Shown here piece by piece: positions 6,500 to 63,860 of a stretch of DNA of 63,860 nucleotides. The DNA comes from Chiloscyllium plagiosum (Eukaryota), in NCBI RefSeq assembly GCF_004010195.1, contig NC_057749.1, forward strand, positions 15,196,436 to 15,260,295, given 5' to 3'. Below the pieces are notes generated by a model that was given only the letters and a program-made list of their open reading frames with translations, did not search any database and was not told the origin of the DNA. The first letter of the stretch is position 1, and each line of letters starts with the position of its first letter. Both the position numbers and the translations under genes were made by a program.

Positions 6500-7130
6500 T
6501 CCCAGAAATGAAAAGCTTAACATTAGAGGAACATTTGAGGACTCTGGGTCTATACTTGATGGAATTGAGAAGGATGAGGGGAGGGGGGGGGGGGGTCTAA
6601 TTAAAATATACAGAATACTGAATGGCCTGAAGATGTTTCCATTGGTAGGACAGACTAGGACCCAAGGGCACAGCCTTGGAGTAAAGGGAAGACCTTATAG
6701 AATGGAGATAAGGAGAAATGTCTTCAGCCAGAGAGTGGGGAATCTATGGAATTCATTGCCAAAGGTGGCTGGGAGGCCAGGTCATTGAGTGTATTTAAAA
6801 CAGAGACGGATAGGTTCTTGAGTACCAAGGGGATCAAGGGTTCCATGGAGAAAGCGAGAGAATGGGGTTGAGAAACTTATCAGAGCTGAAAATGTGTTGC
6901 TGGAAAAGCGCAGCAGGTCAGGCAGCATCCAAGGAGCAGGAGAATCGACGTTTCGGGCATGAGCCCTTTTTCAGGAAGGGCTGCGGCGCTTTTCCAGCAA
7001 CACATTTTCAGATTCGATCTCCAGTGTCTGCCGTCCTCACTTTCTCCTTGAGAAACTTATCAGCCATGACTGAATGGCAGAGCAGGCTCAATGGGCTGAA
7101 TGGCCTAATTTATGCTCCAATATTTTATGG
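6500..7130 (+). mobile_element. CR1 3' fragment containing a PLE-derived fold-back insert (6884-7047)
   Basis: LRTLGLY...RRMRG / FSQRVGNLWNSLP; insert flanked by the 16-bp direct repeat TTGAGAAACTTATCAG. Confidence 0.85.
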
Positions 7131-11832: not shown

Positions 11833-13896
11833 CCTACATACACACGTGTGCGCGTGCCTACATACACACGTGTGCGCGTGTCTACATACACACGTGTGCG
11901 CGTGTCTACATACACACGTGTGCGCGTGTCTACATACACACGTGTGCGCGTGTCTACATACACACGTGTGCGCGTGTCTACATACACACGTGTGCGCGTG
12001 TCTACATACACACGTGTGCGCGTGTCTACATACACACGTGTGCGCGTGTCTACATACACACGTGTGCGCGTGTCTACATACACACGTGTGCGCGTGTCTA
12101 CATACACACGTGTGCGCGTGTCTACATACACACGTGTGCGCGTGTCTACATACACACGTGTGCGCGTGTCTACATACACACGTGTGCGCGTGTCTACATA
12201 CACACGTGTGCGCGTGTCTACATACACACGTGTGCGCGTGTCTACATACACACGTGTGCGCGTGTCTACATACACACGTGTGCGCGTGTCTACATACACA
12301 CGTGTGCGCGTGTCTACATACACACGTGTGCGCGTGTCTACATACACACGTGTGCGCGTGTCTACATACACACGTGTGCGCGTGTCTACATACACACGTG
12401 TGCGCGTGTCTACATACACACGTGTGCGCGTGTCTACATACACACGTGTGCGCGTGTCTACATACACACGTGTGCGCGTGTCTACATACACACGTGTGCG
12501 CGTGTCTACATACACACGTGTGCGCGTGTCTACATACACACGTGTGCGCGTGTCTACATACACACGTGTGCGCGTGTCTACATACACACGTGTGCGCGTG
12601 TCTACATACACACGTGTGCGCGTGTCTACATACACACGTGTGCGCGTGTCTACATACACACGTGTGCGCGTGTCTACATACACACGTGTGCGCGTGTCTA
12701 CATACACACGTGTGCGCGTGTCTACATACACACGTGTGCGCGTGTCTACATACACACGTGTGCGCGTGTCTACATACACACGTGTGCGCGTGTCTACATA
12801 CACACGTGTGCGCGTGTCTACATACACACGTGTGCGCGTGTCTACATACACACGTGTGCGCGTGTCTACATACACACGTGTGCGCGTGTCTACATACACA
12901 CGTGTGCGCGTGTCTACATACACACGTGTGCGCGTGTCTACATACACACGTGTGCGCGTGTCTACATACACACGTGTGCGCGTGTCTACATACACACGTG
13001 TGCGCGTGTCTACATACACACGTGTGCGCGTGTCTACATACACACGTGTGCGCGTGTCTACATACACACGTGTGCGCGTGTCTACATACACACGTGTGCG
13101 CGTGTCTACATACACACGTGTGCGCGTGTCTACATACACACGTGTGCGCGTGTCTACATACACACGTGTGCGCGTGTCTACATACACACGTGTGCGCGTG
13201 TCTACATACACACGTGTGCGCGTGTCTACATACACACGTGTGCGCGTGTCTACATACACACGTGTGCGCGTGTCTACATACACACGTGTGCGCGTGTCTA
13301 CATACACACGTGTGCGCGTGTCTACATACACACGTGTGCGCGTGTCTACATACACACGTGTGCGCGTGTCTACATACACACGTGTGCGCGTGTCTACATA
13401 CACACGTGTGCGCGTGTCTACATACACACGTGTGCGCGTGTCTACATACACACGTGTGCGCGTGTCTACATACACACGTGTGCGCGTGTCTACATACACA
13501 CGTGTGCGCGTGTCTACATACACACGTGTGCGCGTGTCTACATACACACGTGTGCGCGTGTCTACATACACACGTGTGCGCGTGTCTACATACACACGTG
13601 TGCGCGTGTCTACATACACACGTGTGCGCGTGTCTACATACACACGTGTGCGCGTGTCTACATACACACGTGTGCGCGTGTCTACATACACACGTGTGCG
13701 CGTGTCTACATACACACGTGTGCGCGTGTCTACATACACACGTGTGCGCGTGTCTACATACACACGTGTGCGCGTGTCTACATACACACGTGTGCGCGTG
13801 TCTACATACACACGTGTGCGCGTGTCTACATACACACGTGTGCGCGTGTCTACATACACACGTGTGCGCGTGTCTACATACACACGTGTGCGCGTG
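11833..13896. repeat. Minisatellite, 86 x 24 bp (TCTACATACACACGTGTGCGCGTG)
   Basis: 2064 bp / 24 = 86 units; only the first two units differ (CCTA for TCTA). Confidence 0.98.
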
Positions 13897-19444: not shown

Positions 19445-19650
19445 ACTGCAGATGCTGAAGATTAGAGTCAAGATTTGAGTGGTGCTGGAAAAGCACAGCA
19501 GGTCTGGCAGCATGTGAGGAGCAGAAAAATCAACACTTCGGGCAAAAACCCTTCATCAGGAAACCGGATTTTACATGAAACGTTGATTTTCCTGATCCTC
19601 GGATGCTGCCTGACCTGCTGCGCTTTTCCAGCGCCACTCTAATCTAGACT
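19445..19650. mobile_element. PLE-derived fold-back insert within a ~45-bp tandem repeat
   Basis: Inverted arms agtggtgctggaaaagcacagcaggtc / gacctgctgcgcttttccagcgccact; flanked by copies of ccaggtgggcaccccacttg.ct..agactcaccca (19380-19430, 19660-19750). Confidence 0.8.
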
Positions 19651-24195: not shown

Positions 24196-25315
24196 AAGGA
24201 CCGTGATTGGTCAAAGGGTTCTTTGACCTGATTGGTAGAATCAAGATCCAGTAGCCAGAAGTTACCCAAGGAGTGATCCCAGATCTCGACCAGATTACCG
24301 GTCTCAACCGCCAGGAGGCATTCTTGTACGGAGGTGAAAACAGGGGCACGGGGGTACGTGAGAGTGAACAACACAGCTGACCTGGACTAAGATACGGAGT
24401 GAGTGAGTCAATGGCCCTGCTCGTACCACTGAGAAGGGCCACCTCTCAAACAGTGATCCTGGACGGATGTCAAATGGGAAGGGATTCCACCCTGGCCATG
24501 AGACCCCCATGCTTGCCTCTCGCTCAGGAAGAATGACAACTAGGTTGAGAAATCAGAGTAGAAGAGACGAACTAGGAACAAGGAGACTCACAGAGTGCCC
24601 CAGAGTAGCAGTCAGAGTTAAAACATCTGTTGAAAGAGTTCTACATGTCTCTTCTGATATTTGGTTATATTTGGGGATATTTGGTTTCCTGACTTATCTG
24701 TTTCCTTCAGGAATTCTCACAGGCAGAACTGTACAATACCGAAAGGGGACCAGCTGCATATCATAGACTGAGCTGACAGAAATTCAACTTGTTGGAATAA
24801 AAACAGAAAACAAATAATTCTCAATGAAATACAGGTAGATGGAGCAGCAGGTACATTTGCATTATCAGAGACACACCTGGCTCTCTCCGTGTTAGTGAAT
24901 GGAATACACAGGTTAACTCACTGGGAATAGCACAAATCAGATTCAAACAGAGCTGGACCTAGACGGCAGAGGGTATGCACAGATAGAAGACAGTGTTCAC
25001 CTTTGTCAGATTCTTTGACATACCATTCAGACTGATGAGCAAATTATTTATAACAGGAGGGAAGCCTTTGGGGAGTGGGGGGGTGAATAGGAGATTCCGG
25101 CTGATGGGATGCTGTCTGATCTAGATTTTACCTCAGTGAGTAAAATGGAATATTGCACGTATTTCAAAACACTACAACTCTCAATGTGGTGTTAATGGCG
25201 CCTCAATGGAACCTGACTAAAAGACTGTTGCATCAGGCACACGATGGGAAGGTGATGCCAAGACTGTGCAGCTGGGGTTCAAACAATTCACAAGAAGCTG
25301 ATAATCACAACCTAC

Positions 25316-25864
25316 CTTTCTGGCAGTGGTTCGCGTTCCAACAGCGGTAGTTGTACTGGTTGTTCACACTGGTCTTAATACAGAGGGGCTGGTCCTCCAT
25401 GGTTCCTGGGCAAACATCCCCACACTCGCTCTGCTGTTTATTCCGATCGATATAGTTATTCTCCACAGGATCCAGAATAAAGGACCAGTCAATGGTGGAT
25501 AAGTAACAGAGGTCATGGTTCTTCTCAATCCGCACAGCGCCCCGTGTGATATTCTGAAGGCTGTACAGCCCAATCTCTTTCAAGTGAATCATTTCGAAGA
25601 TGACCAGAGCGTAGTTGAAGAAAAGGTTTATCCCACGGATGACGGCAAGATTTGGGAAGAGGTCCCTCAGCGTCTCCAGCCCGTAGACGCGGTATAGCAG
25701 CAGGTAGTCGGTGATAACCGTTAGCTTTGGGAATCGGAGGACACGGAAGTCTTCTGCTTTGCCGTTGAAGATGAGCAGGATCTGCAGGTAGCCTTCGATT
25801 ATGGTACAGTTCTCCAGCTGTCGGAGATCACTCACGTGATTCCTGATATCCATACCACTGCATA
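25316..25864 (-). CDS. Coding exon 2 (L1 domain and start of furin-like Cys-rich region) of the insulin/IGF receptor-family gene
   Basis: Translates [30 protein letters not shown]...[34 protein letters not shown]...NYALVIFEM...CYLSTIDWS...ECGDVCPG...[11 protein letters not shown]. Acceptor tccgtttccctttcAG at 25866-25865, donor G|GTAGGT at 25315, 549 nt, phase 1-1, matching family exon 2 boundaries. Confidence 0.97.
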
Positions 25865-25983
25865 CTGAAAGGGAAACGGAGGATCTGTTATAGCATTTCA
25901 TGACATAAATATAAAACATGTCAATCCCCTCACACCCTGCCATTAACCAACACATTAAGATTCCACTTTTCTGAAAGAAGGGG

Positions 25984-26030
25984 CTTGCTGTCGAAGCTTG
26001 TCATCTTGCACTCATCAGGACACGTGCAAG
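25984..26030 (-). ncRNA. Type I hammerhead ribozyme-like motif with one core substitution
   Basis: Minus strand: CTTGC-ACG-TGTC CTGATGA GT-GCAAG-AT GACA AGCT TC GACA-GCAAG. Helix I, core, helix II, self-complementary helix III and UUC site are present; position 14 is C instead of A. Confidence 0.6.
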
Positions 26031-26375
26031 AATGCCAAATTTTATAGGGAGCAACAATTTATACTTCATCAGGAAAGGGTGCTCACTGGCTGAAAATTCA
26101 CCGCCGTGCTGTGGAGAATCAGTATCCCTAGATCTTGGCTTAAATCAGAAAAGGCATGACGCCTGGCGTTATGGACCAGACCAGAACCAACTCAAAACAC
26201 TTTCAGAAGGTAGCCTAGACACTAACCCTTATTTATTTTTAAAGGGAAATGTGAAGTGTCACGTTCCAGATGCAATGCGCCTGATCAAACTACTCAACTT
26301 TAAGCAAAGCACTGTAGTTAAAACACTACCAAAGAAAGAGGAATTAGAATAACTTAACTCTTATTGGAAAACTTA

Positions 26376-26840: not shown

Positions 26841-27013
26841 GAGAAAGGGAGGACTGCAGATGCTGGAGATCAGAGTAGAGTGTGTGGCGCTGGAAAAAGC
26901 ACAGCAGCTCAGGCAGCTTCTGCGGAACAGGAGAGTCGACGTTTCGGGCGTAAGCTCTTCATCAGGAATGCTGCCTGAGTTGCTGCGCTTTTCCAGCACC
27001 ACACTCTCGACTC
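26841..27013. mobile_element. PLE-derived fold-back insert with hammerhead-like core
   Basis: Minus strand CTGATGA-A-GAGC-TTAC-GCCC-GAAAC-GTCGAC; inverted arms gctggaaaaagcacagcagctcaggcagc / gctgcctgagttgctgcgcttttccagc. Confidence 0.8.
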
Positions 27014-27310: not shown

Positions 27311-27433
27311 AGGCTAAAGTGAGGACTGCAGATGCTGGAAATCAGAGTTTAGATCAGAGTGGTGCTGGAAAAGCGCAGCAGGTCAGGCAGCATCCGAGGA
27401 GCAGGAAAATCGACATTTCGGACAAAAGCCGTC
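27311..27433 (-). mobile_element. Short PLE 3' end
   Basis: Same terminus family; flanked by ATTACTCAG(G/C)AAGT at 27297-27310 and 27434-27447 (probable TSD). Confidence 0.75.
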
Positions 27434-35290: not shown

Positions 35291-35724
35291 ATGCAAGGGG
35301 TGATGAATGCTTCCTGTTATTGAGATGGGTTCTGAGGAAGGGTCACTGGACATGAAACGTTAGTTCTACTTTCTCTCCAAACGTGCTGCCTGACCTGCAT
35401 GAACGCATTGAATACATGGTTCTTTTTGGAACATTTTAAAGAAAGACCATGCCATTCAAACCTCACATTTCATATTGCCAGTGTGTCCCAGAGCATTGAA
35501 CAGCTAATTAACAGTAATCACAGAAGGACATACCTTTGACCAAATAATAAATATTAGCGAGGGCAGTGTGATAACTCATGTTTAAGATGGAGTCCTGGGT
35601 CTAATACATGGACTCGAGCGCACAGAGGGCATCTTGGTTTTAACTTGCATTCAAGCCAGTGCAACACTGTCAGTATGGCCTTGATTGAGAGCGACCACAT
35701 ACTGGACAATGGATTCAGAAAGCT

Positions 35725-35949
35725 GTTAAGATTAGAGTGGTGCTGGGAAAGCAAAGCAGGTCAGGCAGCATCAGAGCAGGAAAATTCGACATTTCGGGCA
35801 AAAGCCCTTCATCAGGAATGAGGCTGGGATTCAGATTTTGCTGATTTTGCTGAAGCTCCTCGGATGCTGCCTGAACTGCTGTGCTCTTCCAGCACCATTG
35901 ATCCAGAATCTGGTTTCCAGCATCTGCAGTCATTGTTTTTACCCTGCTG
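35725..35949. mobile_element. PLE-derived fold-back insert
   Basis: Minus CTGATGA-A-GGGC-TTTT-GCCC-GAAAT; inverted arms; flanked by GGATTCAGAA(A/G)GCT at 35711 and 35950. Confidence 0.8.
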
Positions 35950-40499: not shown

Positions 40500-40961
40500 T
40501 CTAAGTTGGACAGGAGAGAGCAGACCCTGTTACTATGTTTAATTTTTTTTGTTTATTGCAAAACATCCAACCTCTGCCTTCTCAGGGAAGCTGACGTTAC
40601 CAGCACACCTTCGACAGCTAGACATTTAAAAACTAGCCCCTAGTGCCCAGCCAACATTTTAAAGAATTCATGCAACACTACTAATTGCTGAAAAGGGAGA
40701 CATTTTCCTGAAGAAGTTTCTCACCTTATACCCATCAGGGCAAATGCAAATGCCCACTTTCCAACTCTCAGAACAACTGGCACTGCAGAAACTCAGGTGC
40801 TGATTAGCTCAGCTTCCTTGTCAGTCAGTCAGAGTCATACAGCAGGGAAACACACCCTTCGGTCCAAATAGTCCATGCCGACCCCAATCCCAAACTAACT
40901 AGTCCCACCTGCCTGCTCCTGGCCCGTATCCTTCCAAACCTTTGCTGTTCATCTACTAATC

Positions 40962-46056: not shown

Positions 46057-47350
46057 TTGGGGAACCCAACAGAACATTCCGAGTATGCCACGAAAAAAAA
46101 ACACACAACAAACAAACTGCAACAAAAAAAATGAAATCAAATCCTCAGCCCCAACAAACCAAACCAGAGGAGGTCCATTTCCTTCGGGGAGGGGTGGGAA
46201 AAAAAACAAAAATTCTCTGGAATCGATGGTGATTTTTTAACCAGAGATTTTTTTTGGGGGGGGGAGAAGAAAGGATCGAAGAGGATTTTTTTTTAAAAGG
46301 TGGGAGTGAGGACTTCCAAATTCTCACTAAGAGAGGATGCAGGGGAAAAAAAAGTTACTGTTGCAAATGGAAAATGTTCTCTTCCTCTCTTGTTAGAGTG
46401 TCTCCCTGTCTGTTTTTTCTTGAGCCCTGTTTCAACCTTGTCTGTGATTCACTGTGAAATTTAACGAACACAGCTGTCCTGAAACTCCCCATCCTCAGTG
46501 TCCATTCCTTTAAAAGGACAGAGACAAAATAAAAGGGAAACAATGGGAGAAAAAAAATGTATTTTAAGAAGAAACCAGAGAAAAAATATCCACACAGATT
46601 GGTGTGGGATTTTTTTTCTAACTCCCAACAATTCAGAGGGATGTTTTATTTCCTCTCAGGAATTGCTCTCAAAAAACAACAAGATTTTCTCTCTTTACCC
46701 CCACCCCCTCTCCCTCTCCCTCCCTCCTCTCTCTGCTTCCCTCCCTCCCTCCTCTGTTGTTTGTTTGGAGCCTGAGGAAGGAAAAGAAAAATAGAGAGAG
46801 AGAGAGAGACAGAAAGGTGGGGGAGGGAGAAAGGAGGAAAAAAAAGGCAAAGCGTGGCGCGTTGGGATTTTTCCAGGACAAGGGAGAGAGAATAGGAGAG
46901 AGGGGAAGAGAGAGGAGGAGGGGGGGGGGAATGAAACAAGAAATGAGGAGAGGCGCGGGGTTCGCCTTCACTCCCCGGGATGGGAGCTCTCTGCACCGGC
47001 CGTGGCTCCCACTGCACTCCCTCCCCGGGGGGGGAGTGCTCGCTGGTCTCCGGGAGCAATGCTCGAAAGGGTTTCCGCTGCTTTTTCTTTCTCTCTCTCT
47101 CTCTCTGTGTGTGTGTGTCTGTCTCTCTCTCTCTCTCTCTTTCTCGGTAGGTTTAGGTCCGCCCGCCGTCTCTCTGACTCAGGCTCCGAGCTCGCTGGTA
47201 AACAAGAGCCTCAGACTGACTCCGAGCAGCCAGCACAACCCGTCCTGGACTCTGGGAGCCGGACTGCACACCTCGGGCTTGGCCGATCCAGATCCGACAG
47301 CGAGAGGCAAGGCAAGATCCCACAGAGCAGGGCTCACACACACACACACA
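46057..47350 (-). promoter_or_regulatory. Putative long 5' UTR and promoter of the receptor gene
   Basis: Non-transposon sequence directly upstream of the ATG, with U-rich tracts on the sense strand, GA/CT tracts (46687-46950, 47080-47140) and locally raised CpG (46950-47300). TSS not determinable. Confidence 0.55.
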
Positions 47351-49310: not shown

Positions 49311-50577
49311 ACAACAATTACTGAATTATAATTCATCCTGTTAAGTGCTTCAGGATGCTTTAATATAGGGAGCTATGTAAATGCATGTATGAATTAGAAT
49401 TATTCCCTTGTTATGAATAGACATCACCCCAACATGAATTTGAGTCTATTGTTTATATTGCCTTTGGCTCTTCAATGGACAATACTGCATTGTCTTTTGG
49501 AAGGATCAATAAAGTTTTTTCGGCGGATCTAAGCGGTGTTGAGGTACTCTGCAACCAATTCTGATGAAAGGTCACTGAAACCAGACATTTTGACTATTTC
49601 CAGCATTTTCTATTTTTACTTCAACCTATGTCTTGGCCAATAATTCTCTGACAAGTGGCAAAATATTCGCTCACTCATTCATTCGCTGTTTGTGTGAGGC
49701 CTTGCTCCATGAATAATTTTGCACCTGCATTTCGAATCATGGATGGAGTCACTGAATGGTTATAGCACAGATGGGGACCACTTGGTCCATTGTGTACATG
49801 CCAGCTCTCTGCAAGAGTAACTCAGCTTGTCCCACTCCCCTGCCTTTCCCTCACCGTTCTGAGAATACATCTTCTTCACAGACTGATCCAAATCTCTTTC
49901 AAACACCTGACTTGAACCTGTCTCTACCACACTCTCAGGCAGTACATTCTAGATCCCAACCACTCTTATGTCAAAGTTTCCCCTAATGACACTATTCCTT
50001 CATTTGCCAATCACTCCAATTCGGAATTCTTCCACCAATGGGAACAACCTCCCCCTGGTTGTCAGCGTAACAATAGTGAGTGCGCTTCAAAAGTAATTAT
50101 TGATTTCAAAGTGTGTCACGATCCCTAGGGGTGTGGAAGGATACTCCATAAACTCAGGTTTTGATTCCTTATCACCTGAAAGGGCACATATTCCCCTAGT
50201 TTTCAGTTGGTAACAACCTGCTGCACATTTCCAAAGTTTTCTCTTTAAATTTTAACAAAAAATAAAATTGCAAGAGAAACTTCTTTGTTAATTGTTAATT
50301 TAAGGACAATTTTCTCCACTGAGAAAGTGATTTGGACTGGAGTTCCCCAAGTACTAGATGCCTTCTCATTGGCAAGACAGGGGTCAGTTTAGCTCAGTTG
50401 GCTGCACAGCTCATTCACAATGCAGAATGAGTGCTAACAGCAGGGGTTCAAATCCTACACCAGCTACAGTTACGGTGAGGGTTGTTATTTACCCATCAAC
50501 CAATCAATTCTCGAGCCAATATCACATTTCTGATTGTGGGAGCTGGCTATGCTCAAATTGGCTGTTGTGTTATCTTT

Positions 50578-51975
50578 GCTGAAAATGTGTTGCTGGAAAA
50601 GCGCAGCAGGTCAGGCAACATCCAAGGAGCAGGAGAATCGACATTTCGGGCATGAGCCCTTCTTCAGGAATGAGGAAAGTGTGCCCGGCAGGCTAAGATA
50701 AAAGGTAGGAAGGAGGGACTTGGGAGAGGGGCGTTGGAAATGCGNNNNNNNNNNNNNNNNNNNNNNNNNNNNNNNNNNNNNNNNNNNNNNNNNNNNNNNN
50801 NNNNNNNNNNNNNNNNNNNNNNNNNNNNNNNNNNNNNNNNNNNNNNNNNNNNNNNNNNNNNNNNNNNNNNNNNNNNNNNNNNNNNNNNNNNNNNNNNNNN
50901 NNNNNNNNNNNNNNNNNNNNNNNNNNNNNNNNNNNNNNNNNNNNNNNNNNNNNNNNNNNNNNNNNNNNNNNNNNNNNNNNNNNNNNNNNNNNNNNNNNNN
51001 NNNNNNNNNNNNNNNNNNNNNNNNNNNNNNNNNNNNNNNNNNNNNNNNNNNNNNNNNNNNNNNNNNNNNNNNNNNNNNNNNNNNNNNNNNNNNNNNNNNN
51101 NNNNNNNNNNNNNNNNNNNNNNNNNNNNNNNNNNNNNNNNNNNNNNNNNNNNNNNNNNNNNNNNNNNNNNNNNNNNNNNNNNNNNNNNNNNNNNNNNNNN
51201 NNNNNNNNNNNNNNNNNNNNNNNNNNNNNNNNNNNNNNNNNNNNNNNNNNNNNNNNNNNNNNNNNNNNNNNNNNNNNNNNNNNNNNNNNNNNNNNNNNNN
51301 NNNNNNNNNNNNNNNNNNNNNNNNNNNNNNNNNNNNNNNNNNNNNNNNNNNNNNNNNNNNNNNNNNNNNNNNNNNNNNNNNNNNNNNNNNNNNNNNNNNN
51401 NNNNNNNNNNNNNNNNNNNNNNNNNNNNNNNNNNNNNNNNNNNNNNNNNNNNNNNNNNNNNNNNNNNNNNNNNNNNNNNNNNNNNNNNNNNNNNNNNNNN
51501 NNNNNNNNNNNNNGTGGAGGTGGGGTTGGTGGGGGGTGTGGACCTGATGAGGGAGTCACAGAGGGAGTGGTCTTTTTGGAATGCTGATAGGGGAAGGGAG
51601 TGAAATATATCCCTGGTAGTGGGATCCGTTTGGAGGTGGCGGAAATGCGACGGATGATATGATGTATATGGAGGTTGGTGGGGTGGTAGGTGAGGACCAG
51701 TGGGGTTCTGTCCTGGTGGCGATTGGAGGGGCGGGGCTCAAGGGCGGAGCGGGAAGTGGAGGAGATGTGGTGGAGAGCATCGTCGATCATGTCTGGGGGG
51801 AAATTGTGGTCTTTGAAGAAGGAGGCTATCTGGGTTGTTCGGTATTGGAACTGGTCCTCCTGGGAGCAGATGGGCGGAGACGAAGGAATTGGGAATATGG
51901 GTTGGCATTTTTACAGGGGGCAGGTTGGGAGGAGGTGTAGTCTAGGTAGCTGTGGGAGTCGGTCAGTTTATAGTA
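50578..51975 (-). mobile_element. Penelope-like element, 3' portion spanning an N-gap (50745-51513)
   Basis: IDDALHHISSTSRSALEPRPSNRHQDRTPLVLTYHPTNL (PLE RT-EN linker-like); terminus carries CTGAAGA-A-GGGC-TCAT-GCCC-GAAAT at ~50668-50642. Confidence 0.8.
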
Positions 51976-63156: not shown

Positions 63157-63369
63157 GGAGAAACTGAGGTCTGCAGATGCTGGAGATCAGAGATGGAAAT
63201 GTGTTGCTGGAAAAGCGCAGCAGGTCAGGCAGCATCTAGGGAACAGGAGAATCGACGTTTCGGGCATCAGCCCTTCTTCAGGAAGAAGGGCTAATGCCCG
63301 AAACATCGATTCTCCTGTTCCCTAGATGCTGCCTGACCTGCTGCGCTTTTCCAGCAACACATTTCCATC
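63157..63369. mobile_element. Young PLE-derived fold-back insert with 14-bp TSD
   Basis: ~90-bp inverted arms (63190-63279 / 63282-63371, 2 mismatches); TCATCATTCTCATA at 63143-63156 and 63370-63383. Confidence 0.9.
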
Positions 63370-63604
63370 TCATCATTCTCATAACCAAGCCTGCATCCAG
63401 AGTAATCCTTCTCAGTGATCTTTAGGTCTCACATACCTTCAGCTAATCCTTTTCCTTTCACATCACCTCCATGTCAGAAACCATCATGCCTACAATGGGT
63501 GCACCTCACCCCAGAAAGGATGAGGGAGGTGGTGAGAAGAGGAAGGATGGGTGGCTCCAGAGAGACGCTGGTCTCCATCTCATAACCTTACCAGTTGTAG
63601 TGCT

Positions 63605-63860
63605 GGGTTAGAGTGGTGCTAAAAAAGCACAGCAGTTCAGACAGCATCCGAGGAGCAGGAAAATCGACGTTTCGGGCAAAAGCCCTTCATCAGGAATACA
63701 GGCAGAGAGCCTGAAGGGTGGAGAGATAAGAGAGAGGATGGTGGGGGTGGGGAGAAAGTAACATAGAGTACAATAGGTGAGTGGGGGAGGGGATGGAAGT
63801 GATATGCCAGGGATGAGGGTGGAGTGGATAGGTGGAAAAGAAGATAGGCAGGTAGGACAA
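63605..63860 (-). mobile_element. Penelope-like element 3' end running off the window
   Basis: Minus CTGATGA-A-GGGC-TTTT-GCCC-GAAAC-GTC at 63693-63666; same layout as 50578-50744. Confidence 0.8.

Follow-up and report, generated by a model that had tools for sequence, protein, structure and literature searches.

A decayed hammerhead-like motif upstream of exon 2 of an insulin/IGF1-receptor-like gene belongs to a dispersed non-coding repeat family

The window analysed here, a stretch of 63,860 nucleotides, holds a hammerhead-like motif on its minus strand at 25984–26030. The motif sits in a dispersed non-coding repeat of ~400–450 bp, here termed Fam-X, of its own 3.56-Gb genome. Our preferred reading, held at even confidence, is that the window motif is a dead copy of a non-autonomous element that was mobilized by Penelope-like elements (PLEs) and carried a degenerate minimal hammerhead.

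The motif and its setting

Placed by the window sequence and the family alignment, the motif comprises a helix I 5′ arm (CUUGCACGUGUC, 26030–26019), the core CUGAUGA (26018–26012), region II (GUGCAAGAU, 26011–26003), the segment GACA (26002–25999, with C14 at 26000), the palindrome AAGCUU (25999–25994), C17 (25993) and a helix I 3′ arm (GACAGCAAG, 25992–25984), all on the minus strand. Reading the sequence over 26030–25984 confirms every letter listed in a first-pass annotation of this DNA, together with the pairings drawn there: a helix I of 9 bp with an ACG bulge, a two-pair helix II (GU/AU) closing the loop GCAAG, a self-complementary AAGCUU, a UUC site with its predicted cut between 25993 and 25992, and a 7-nt complementarity between CUUGCAC and GUGCAAG. 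The transcribed strand was also correctly assigned, exon 2 lying downstream of the motif on the minus strand.

Exon 2 of the insulin/IGF1-receptor-like gene (25310–25864, minus; 3′ end approximate) encodes a Receptor L domain (PF01030, 6.4e-29). Its acceptor AG occupies 25866–25865; the boundary is set at 25865|25864 because the match to an RNA-type contig ends at 25864, beyond which the contig continues in unlike sequence. The predicted cut is 128 nt from this boundary, in agreement with the ~130 nt first estimated, and the Fam-X copy is sense-oriented in intron 1.

Position by position, the hammerhead likeness of the window copy is partial. C3 U4 G5 A6 N7 G8 A9 are all present (and at least 90% conserved in Fam-X), as are A15.1–U16.1 and a non-G H17 (A25999, U25994, C25993). 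G12 A13 A14 reads GAC in the window, GAA being found ancestrally only, in the family majority. The helix I that abuts C3 and H17 has 4 contiguous base pairs in the window copy and 5 (+4) in the majority sequence. A helix II of at least 3–4 bp, normally starting with G10.1–C11.1, is found neither in the window copy nor in the family. AAGCUU cannot fold on itself to make helix III; intermolecular pairing is possible, and there is no second Fam-X copy near the window copy.

Taken alone, the window motif does not exceed what chance would produce. The window has 17 occurrences of CTGATGA, where 14.1 ± 3.6 are expected, and a 66-nt fold of the motif gives z = −0.81. We derived chance rates from 60 first-order Markov simulations of the window, using a pattern that ignores helix II and demands the core, a palindromic 15.x–16.x segment with 0, 2 or 4 inner nucleotides, an H17 other than G and a helix I of 4 or more contiguous pairs. 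When one core mismatch is tolerated, this pattern matches a simulated window 0.98 times on average, and at least once in 53% of the 60; with a perfect core, 0.05 matches are expected. The real window has 3 matches with one mismatch allowed, this motif being one, and 2 with a perfect core.

A dispersed repeat family carries the motif

Searching the segment 26100–25968 against its own genome with BLAST gave 557 first-look candidates, of which the 40 scored have 76–88% identity; 59 Fam-X loci were fetched for comparison. The whole copy that holds the motif spans 25958–26158 on the minus strand (nhmmer 26158–25958, E=3e-49) and is 5′-truncated. Relative to C3, the unit extends from about −354/−306 to about +90, the limit near −306 coming from a second, upstream-walking query. 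The 29-mer at its centre, TGTCCTGATGAGTGCAAGATGAAAAGCTT, has 51 exact occurrences and 1096 with up to 2 mismatches, compared with 0 for a reversed control. A second, more decayed copy lies at 40677–40751 (minus; core CCTGATGgGT..., tail AAATGTCTCCCTTTTCAGCAAT), where the family profile matches 40751–40677 with E=7e-5, bearing out the relative earlier suspected at ~40700–40750.

The majority sequence reads ...CCAATCAG...CCAATCAGCACC...TATAAATTGTTGCTCCCTTTGAAATTTGGCATTCTTGCATCTGTC-CTGATGA-GTGCAAGAT-GAAA-AGCTT-Y-RACAGCATGTCTCTTTTTTCAGCAAT..., and holds all 11 invariant core positions, H17 as C or U, and AAGCUU. Because TTYRACAG is the CpG-decay product of TTCGACAG, we take the ancestral site to be C17|G1.1 (UUC|G). 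TTTG and TTCA, the alternatives found after AAGC in the family, are the two decay products of a single CpG, and the window copy still shows the ancestral UUC|G site. Conservation is highest in the block from TATA to AAGCUU, which includes TATAAAT (26057–26063, minus, in the window). Two CCAAT boxes lie upstream of TATAAAT in the majority sequence and are degraded in the window copy; an ATG follows TATA and motif at +16, and the unit contains no ORF.

Retrozyme-type head-to-tail units are absent, with 0 tandem pairs in 59 loci, and none of the Fam-X loci shows head sequence after the tail, as a copy longer than one unit would. Target-site duplications around 7 head-to-head pairs do not exceed shuffled expectation. 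A literal search of the literature for the motif string returned nothing. A solo LTR was rejected as an identity for Fam-X, given the 5′ truncation of copies, the head-to-head pairs and the lack of internal sequence; a SINE with a tRNA head was dropped as no A or B box was seen by eye. Upstream of one Fam-X copy lies an unrelated repeat of ~185 bp (L003:913–1100, own genome), which has at least 4122 first-look candidates at ~82–84% identity and is probably a SINE.

The ancestral module: hammerhead or chance resemblance

The ancestral Fam-X module combines CUGAUGA, GAAA, an A–U pair closing a palindromic AGCU, H17 as C and a 5-bp helix I. Fam-X is an old, abundant, non-coding interspersed repeat, and its window copy is dead and ~30% diverged. 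About 30 nt downstream of the TATA box, the ancestral unit carried a minimal type-I hammerhead-like module, with a helix I of 5 bp and 4 more beyond a one-nucleotide bulge, a vestigial helix II (G·U and U–A closing GCAAG) and then GAAA. Because the A–U pair closes the palindromic loop AGCU, two copies would have to come together to make helix III, with cleavage after UUC. This layout is that of the PLE/retrozyme class of dimeric, weakly active and probably protein-assisted hammerheads. Repeat membership, the ancestral sequence, the decay of the window copy and its family's head-to-head insertions are observed, whereas kinship with hammerheads, any past self-cleavage and mobilization by the PLE machinery, which is very active in this genome, are inferred.

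A credible alternative, to which we give a less than even probability, is that the hammerhead is only mimicked by CUGAUGA, GAAA and flanking complementarity. Fam-X would then be an unclassified non-autonomous repeat, and its 75-nt block from the TATA box to AAGCUU a promoter with a 5′ leader or an RT-recognition hairpin (CUUGCAU/GUGCAAG). The arrangement CCAAT, CCAAT, TATAAAT and ATG at +16 does resemble a Pol II promoter and leader. Helix-II-free matches also arise by chance at ~0.4 per Mb, and such look-alikes are expected somewhere in a several-megabase repeat library. Against this, the full core, H17, the A–U pair with its palindrome and an exactly abutting helix I would seldom coincide by chance (0.05 per window).

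Conservation speaks on both sides. Upstream sequence is as strongly conserved as the core itself, a point for chance resemblance, yet region II has survived less well than the core. Holding the remaining 19 letters of the 29-mer constant, we counted 378 copies with all 10 core positions intact and 205 with an intact comparison set of 10 positions (region II + A15.2), each set having 4 G/C in 10 and no CpG. In the 49 single-mismatch copies listed, a tally by eye puts 4 changes at the free position N7 and 10 across the 10 essential core positions together.

Helix I likewise argues against chance. Its covariation score of 0.222 exceeds the shuffled 0.179 ± 0.013 and is reached by 0 of 500 shuffles (slid controls, 0.05–0.13), a control that related sequences can pass without any structure. 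At pair 2.5–1.5 a C–G to U–A switch is seen, with CG in 20 copies, UA in 11, UG in 4 and other or unpaired combinations in 26. In 39 copies chosen by BLAST rather than by core sequence, at least 4 of the 5 helix I pairs are kept in 25. The AGCU between A15.1 and U16.1, which supplies the palindromic 15.2–16.2/loop 3, is intact in 11 of the same 39, and H17 in 21 pattern-picked copies is A in 2, C in 9, G in 1 and T in 9.

Helix II is the weak point of the hammerhead. The 9 nt between A9 and G12 permit only G·U and U–A, in the window copy and the whole family, and forming this two-pair helix costs +0.7 kcal/mol. The lack of helix II is thus family-wide, not a peculiarity of the window copy, and favours chance resemblance. 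Region II keeps its sequence rather than covarying, and the upstream CUUGCAU is its pairing partner. In the window, the resulting competing hairpin (26005–26030, minus) joins CUUGCAC (26030–26024) to GUGCAAG (26011–26005), placing CUGAUGA in its loop, and it is the predicted minimum-energy fold. For the 65-nt majority sequence, the hairpin fold reaches −15.0 kcal/mol versus −5.7 for the hammerhead-like fold. Across 54 Fam-X copies (mean z −0.24), the minimum-energy fold contains the hairpin in 31 and helix I in 1. Subfamily changes on the 5′ strand of the hairpin (CA to UG) still pair by wobble, a further point for chance resemblance. The hairpin does not covary, however: its score of 0.123, against 0.141, is reached by 478 of 500 shuffles, in an alignment of 61 rows of which 20 were chosen with the hairpin's 3′ strand fixed.

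The hairpin cannot double as helix II: its 5′ strand leads to helix I and not to G12. A hammerhead using the 7-bp hairpin as helix II was therefore dropped for wrong strand connectivity, and an HDV-like fold for want of room for P3 between the hairpin strands. The energy of a double-hammerhead dimer is not evaluable as a nested structure; a hand estimate was left unused.

A bolder version of the hammerhead reading, which we think unlikely, makes Fam-X an undescribed vertebrate hammerhead variant, promoter-equipped and PLE-mobilized, at an estimated ten thousand copies or more. Its helix II would consist of two pairs around a GNRA-like GCAA, and the RNA would switch between an inactive state, the stable hairpin, and an active one, a dimeric hammerhead assisted by protein.

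Insertion signature and Penelope-like elements

A genuine PLE 3′ end at 26883–26970 (minus), whose minimal hammerhead reads CUGAUGA-A-GAGC-UUAC-GCCC-GAAAC-GUC|GA, serves as an internal control and folds with z = −6.66. This end (26970–26883) is ~900 nt from the motif, inside a long stem, with a head-to-head partner at 26968–27003 (+). Other PLE 3′ ends among the window's hammerhead elements lie at about 63693 and about 63281. The motif's family differs from these elements, as the first-pass annotation had proposed. In the genome, PLE 3′ ends carry CCUGAUGA-A-GGGC-UUNN-GCCC-GAAAC-GUC|GA directly after the ORF stop. PLEs are abundant, with 48663 first-look candidates for the zinc-finger/GIY-YIG segment; a genome-wide GIY-YIG Pfam search, in which 150 of 14403 candidates were scored with one weak match, served to find a PLE fragment.

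Fam-X is not homologous to PLE 3′ ends: its profile has no match in four of them. Among the PLE loci, L062, L064 and L066 are largely N. No RT/EN ORF is present within 4.5 kb upstream of 20 Fam-X copies (5-kb flanks), a test made incomplete by intact PLE stretches that read N, and this missing link is a point for chance resemblance. Nor, in those 20 copies and with the same limit, was the motif found in repeats flanking an RT/GIY-YIG ORF, the position of PLE minimal hammerheads.

The insertion pattern, by contrast, is PLE-like and counts against chance resemblance. A second Fam-X copy lies within ~0.8 kb at 11 of the 59 loci, 10 of them independent (L025 and L030 are duplicates). All 11 close pairs are head-to-head with variable junctions (0 tandem, 0 tail-to-tail), and the PLE 3′ ends of the window are paired head-to-head in 5 of 5 cases. 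The distance from cut to 3′ end is ~55 nt in Fam-X and the PLE copy alike, the Fam-X end being fuzzy by ~10 nt. It is the head-to-head signature, and nothing else, that points Fam-X to the PLE machinery. Of the ribozyme-bearing retroelement of a separate family first proposed, the distinct repeat family is established; its retroelement nature depends on that signature and is unproven.

Profile searches and the small-RNA alternative

Rfam hammerhead models have no match in the window at gathering score or E≤10, and none at E≤10 in a 221-nt slice around the motif, in 20 Fam-X loci or in the best-kept copy. The same scan also misses an intact-core PLE hammerhead with a 4-bp helix II (63590–63810). 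Since this control is likewise missed, the silence of Rfam was set aside as evidence. Genome-wide, RF00163 gave no match among 73 scored of 409411 candidates, and control genomes were likewise without a match.

One weak hit of another kind bears on an improbable alternative, in which the module is a small structured RNA and no ribozyme. This RNA, of ~60 nt, would run from ~30 nt after the TATA box to a T-run at +40 to +45, its ends paired (GCAUCUGUC with GACAGCAUGU), as a Pol III-type or box C/D-like kink-turn RNA. The geometry of TATAAAT, T6 run and terminal stem is right, and SNORD27 matches weakly through UGAUGA, although its 15.6 bits (E=5.5) are far under the gathering threshold of 52 bits. 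A box C/D snoRNA should have a C box (RUGAUGA), a D box (CUGA) and a terminal stem; there is no CUGA, and a C-to-D distance of 20 nt leaves too little room for a guide RNA. Judged by eye against consensus sequences, no proximal sequence element (PSE) stands at the right spacing, and the CCAAT boxes suggest Pol II. Fam-X copies also include their promoter, whereas transcription from an external promoter would leave it out of the RNA.

Decay of the window copy

The window copy is 69.7% identical to the Fam-X majority over 185 columns, the best copies reaching 83%. Its C at 26000 is private to this copy, GAAA being the majority state of the family. In ancestral helix I it is altered at 2.5 (C to G), 2.6 (U to C) and 1.8 (U to A), and these private changes create the CUUGC/GCAAG register drawn earlier. 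The 9-bp helix I of the first-pass annotation is thus present as pairs, but mutations private to this copy account for part of that register; ancestrally, helix I paired in a different one.

Among the 39 BLAST-picked copies, 16 keep all 11 core letters, 16 have one change and 7 have more; every hammerhead-like feature is kept in only 3. With at least one core change in 23 of the 39, core loss in the window copy is ordinary decay. This, with the low identity and the further helix I changes, contradicts the suggestion that a single substitution inactivated the motif, as expected next to an essential exon. The decay is neutral and general, with no single protective substitution beside the exon.

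The same state is seen in organism A: over the 338 nt from 25700 to 26037, its DNA contig (run X18) differs by 4 substitutions and one single-base gap. None of these differences falls at 26000, so the organism A orthologue also has GACA. The family majority does have GAAA, as the first-pass annotation predicted. As organism A has the same intron, exon and insertion, the Fam-X insertion is older than the split between A and B, provided that the two are separate species.

With A14 (C at 26000) and two helix I positions lost, the window copy should neither cleave nor affect splicing; it is almost certainly inert, and we see no sign of a role in splicing. Raw single-cell RNA reads over the locus number 6 in X21 and 0 in X22, too few to judge, with no pile-up of ends. 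It is very improbable that the window copy works as an active or regulated ribozyme, or as a switch, and cleaves the receptor pre-mRNA upstream of exon 2: its sense orientation and its short distance from the acceptor would suit such a role, but A14 is C, helix I is changed at 2.5, 2.6 and 1.8, helix II has 2 bp, a single molecule cannot close helix III and no second copy is nearby, identity to the majority is low and organism A shares the GACA state.

Comparison with known systems

PLE minimal hammerheads have a helix II of 6–8 bp with a highly conserved G10.1–C11.1 and an unpaired extra nucleotide after A9, and are reported in pairs on opposite strands, 100–700 bp apart (Cervera and de la Pena 2014, PMC4209133). 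Fam-X resembles them in its type-I layout, its short helix I (4–5 bp), a helix III made of A15.1–U16.1 plus a palindrome, implying dimer action, and its thousands of mostly solitary copies with opposite-strand pairs, in a non-mammalian vertebrate genome rich in PLEs (PMC4209133). It differs in a 2-bp helix II with G·U that lacks G10.1–C11.1 (PMC4209133), in not being found in repeats flanking an RT/GIY-YIG ORF, and in a loop and region II fixed in sequence.

Animal non-LTR retrozymes (PMC7229834; Li et al. 2026, preprint 10.64898/2026.07.22.740005) share with Fam-X a non-coding unit of a few hundred base pairs, a type-I hammerhead-like motif, dispersed monomers and a proposed PLE dependence. 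Unlike those retrozymes (Cervera and de la Pena 2020, PMC7229834), Fam-X shows no tandem arrays in 59 loci, its unit ends lie off the cleavage site and its hammerhead identity is putative. The SINE-like elements of Schistosoma (review, PMC6765202) are also short non-autonomous repeats with a promoter directly upstream of a hammerhead-like motif; the Fam-X promoter is CCAAT/TATA-like (Pol II type) rather than internal Pol III, and Fam-X is without helix II.

In the Poseidon PLE of Anolis (PAc; PMC11167929), a promoter-bearing repeat is closely followed by a hammerhead that overlaps the start of the ORF and cleaves only with protein. The Fam-X order of TATA, motif and ATG at +16 recalls this overlap of hammerhead and ATG, and insertions in both end a short 'tail' after the hammerhead or hammerhead-like motif (PMC11167929). 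PAc has a stem II, whereas Fam-X has no ORF after its motif.

Implications and other features of the window

If the ancestral module cleaved, the natural range of hammerheads would extend to forms almost without helix II, vertebrate PLEs would gain a promoter-bearing, non-autonomous partner, and current covariance models would be missing whole hammerhead families, even the canonical PLE ones in the window. If it never cleaved, the case would be a caution, helix-II-free look-alikes occurring about once per 64 kb with one core mismatch. Either way, the copy beside exon 2 is an inert fossil.

Short PLE 3′ ends with the minimal hammerhead CUGAUGA-A-GGGC..GCCC-GAAAC-GUC lie in the window at 26883–27003, 63197–63364, 63613–63697 and 6882–7008, with further ones at 19479–19632, 35737–35897, 27359–27430 and 50577–50744. 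Rfam misses these ends and calls the pair at 63231–63331 a weak 'mir-680'. Other hammerhead-like matches are at 35332 (+), 45189 (+) and 27908 (+); two have a perfect core under the helix-II-free pattern (0.05 expected per window) and one reads CUGAAGA...CGAAAC, and they may be other PLE-type families. Weak 'mir-297' matches recur at regular intervals over 11836–13894, which points to a tandem or simple repeat of ~2 kb. A palindrome with a CT-rich (pyrimidine) arm and a GA-rich (purine) arm occupies 46676–46848; many miRNA families match it weakly, at 41 bits at most, far below gathering scores.
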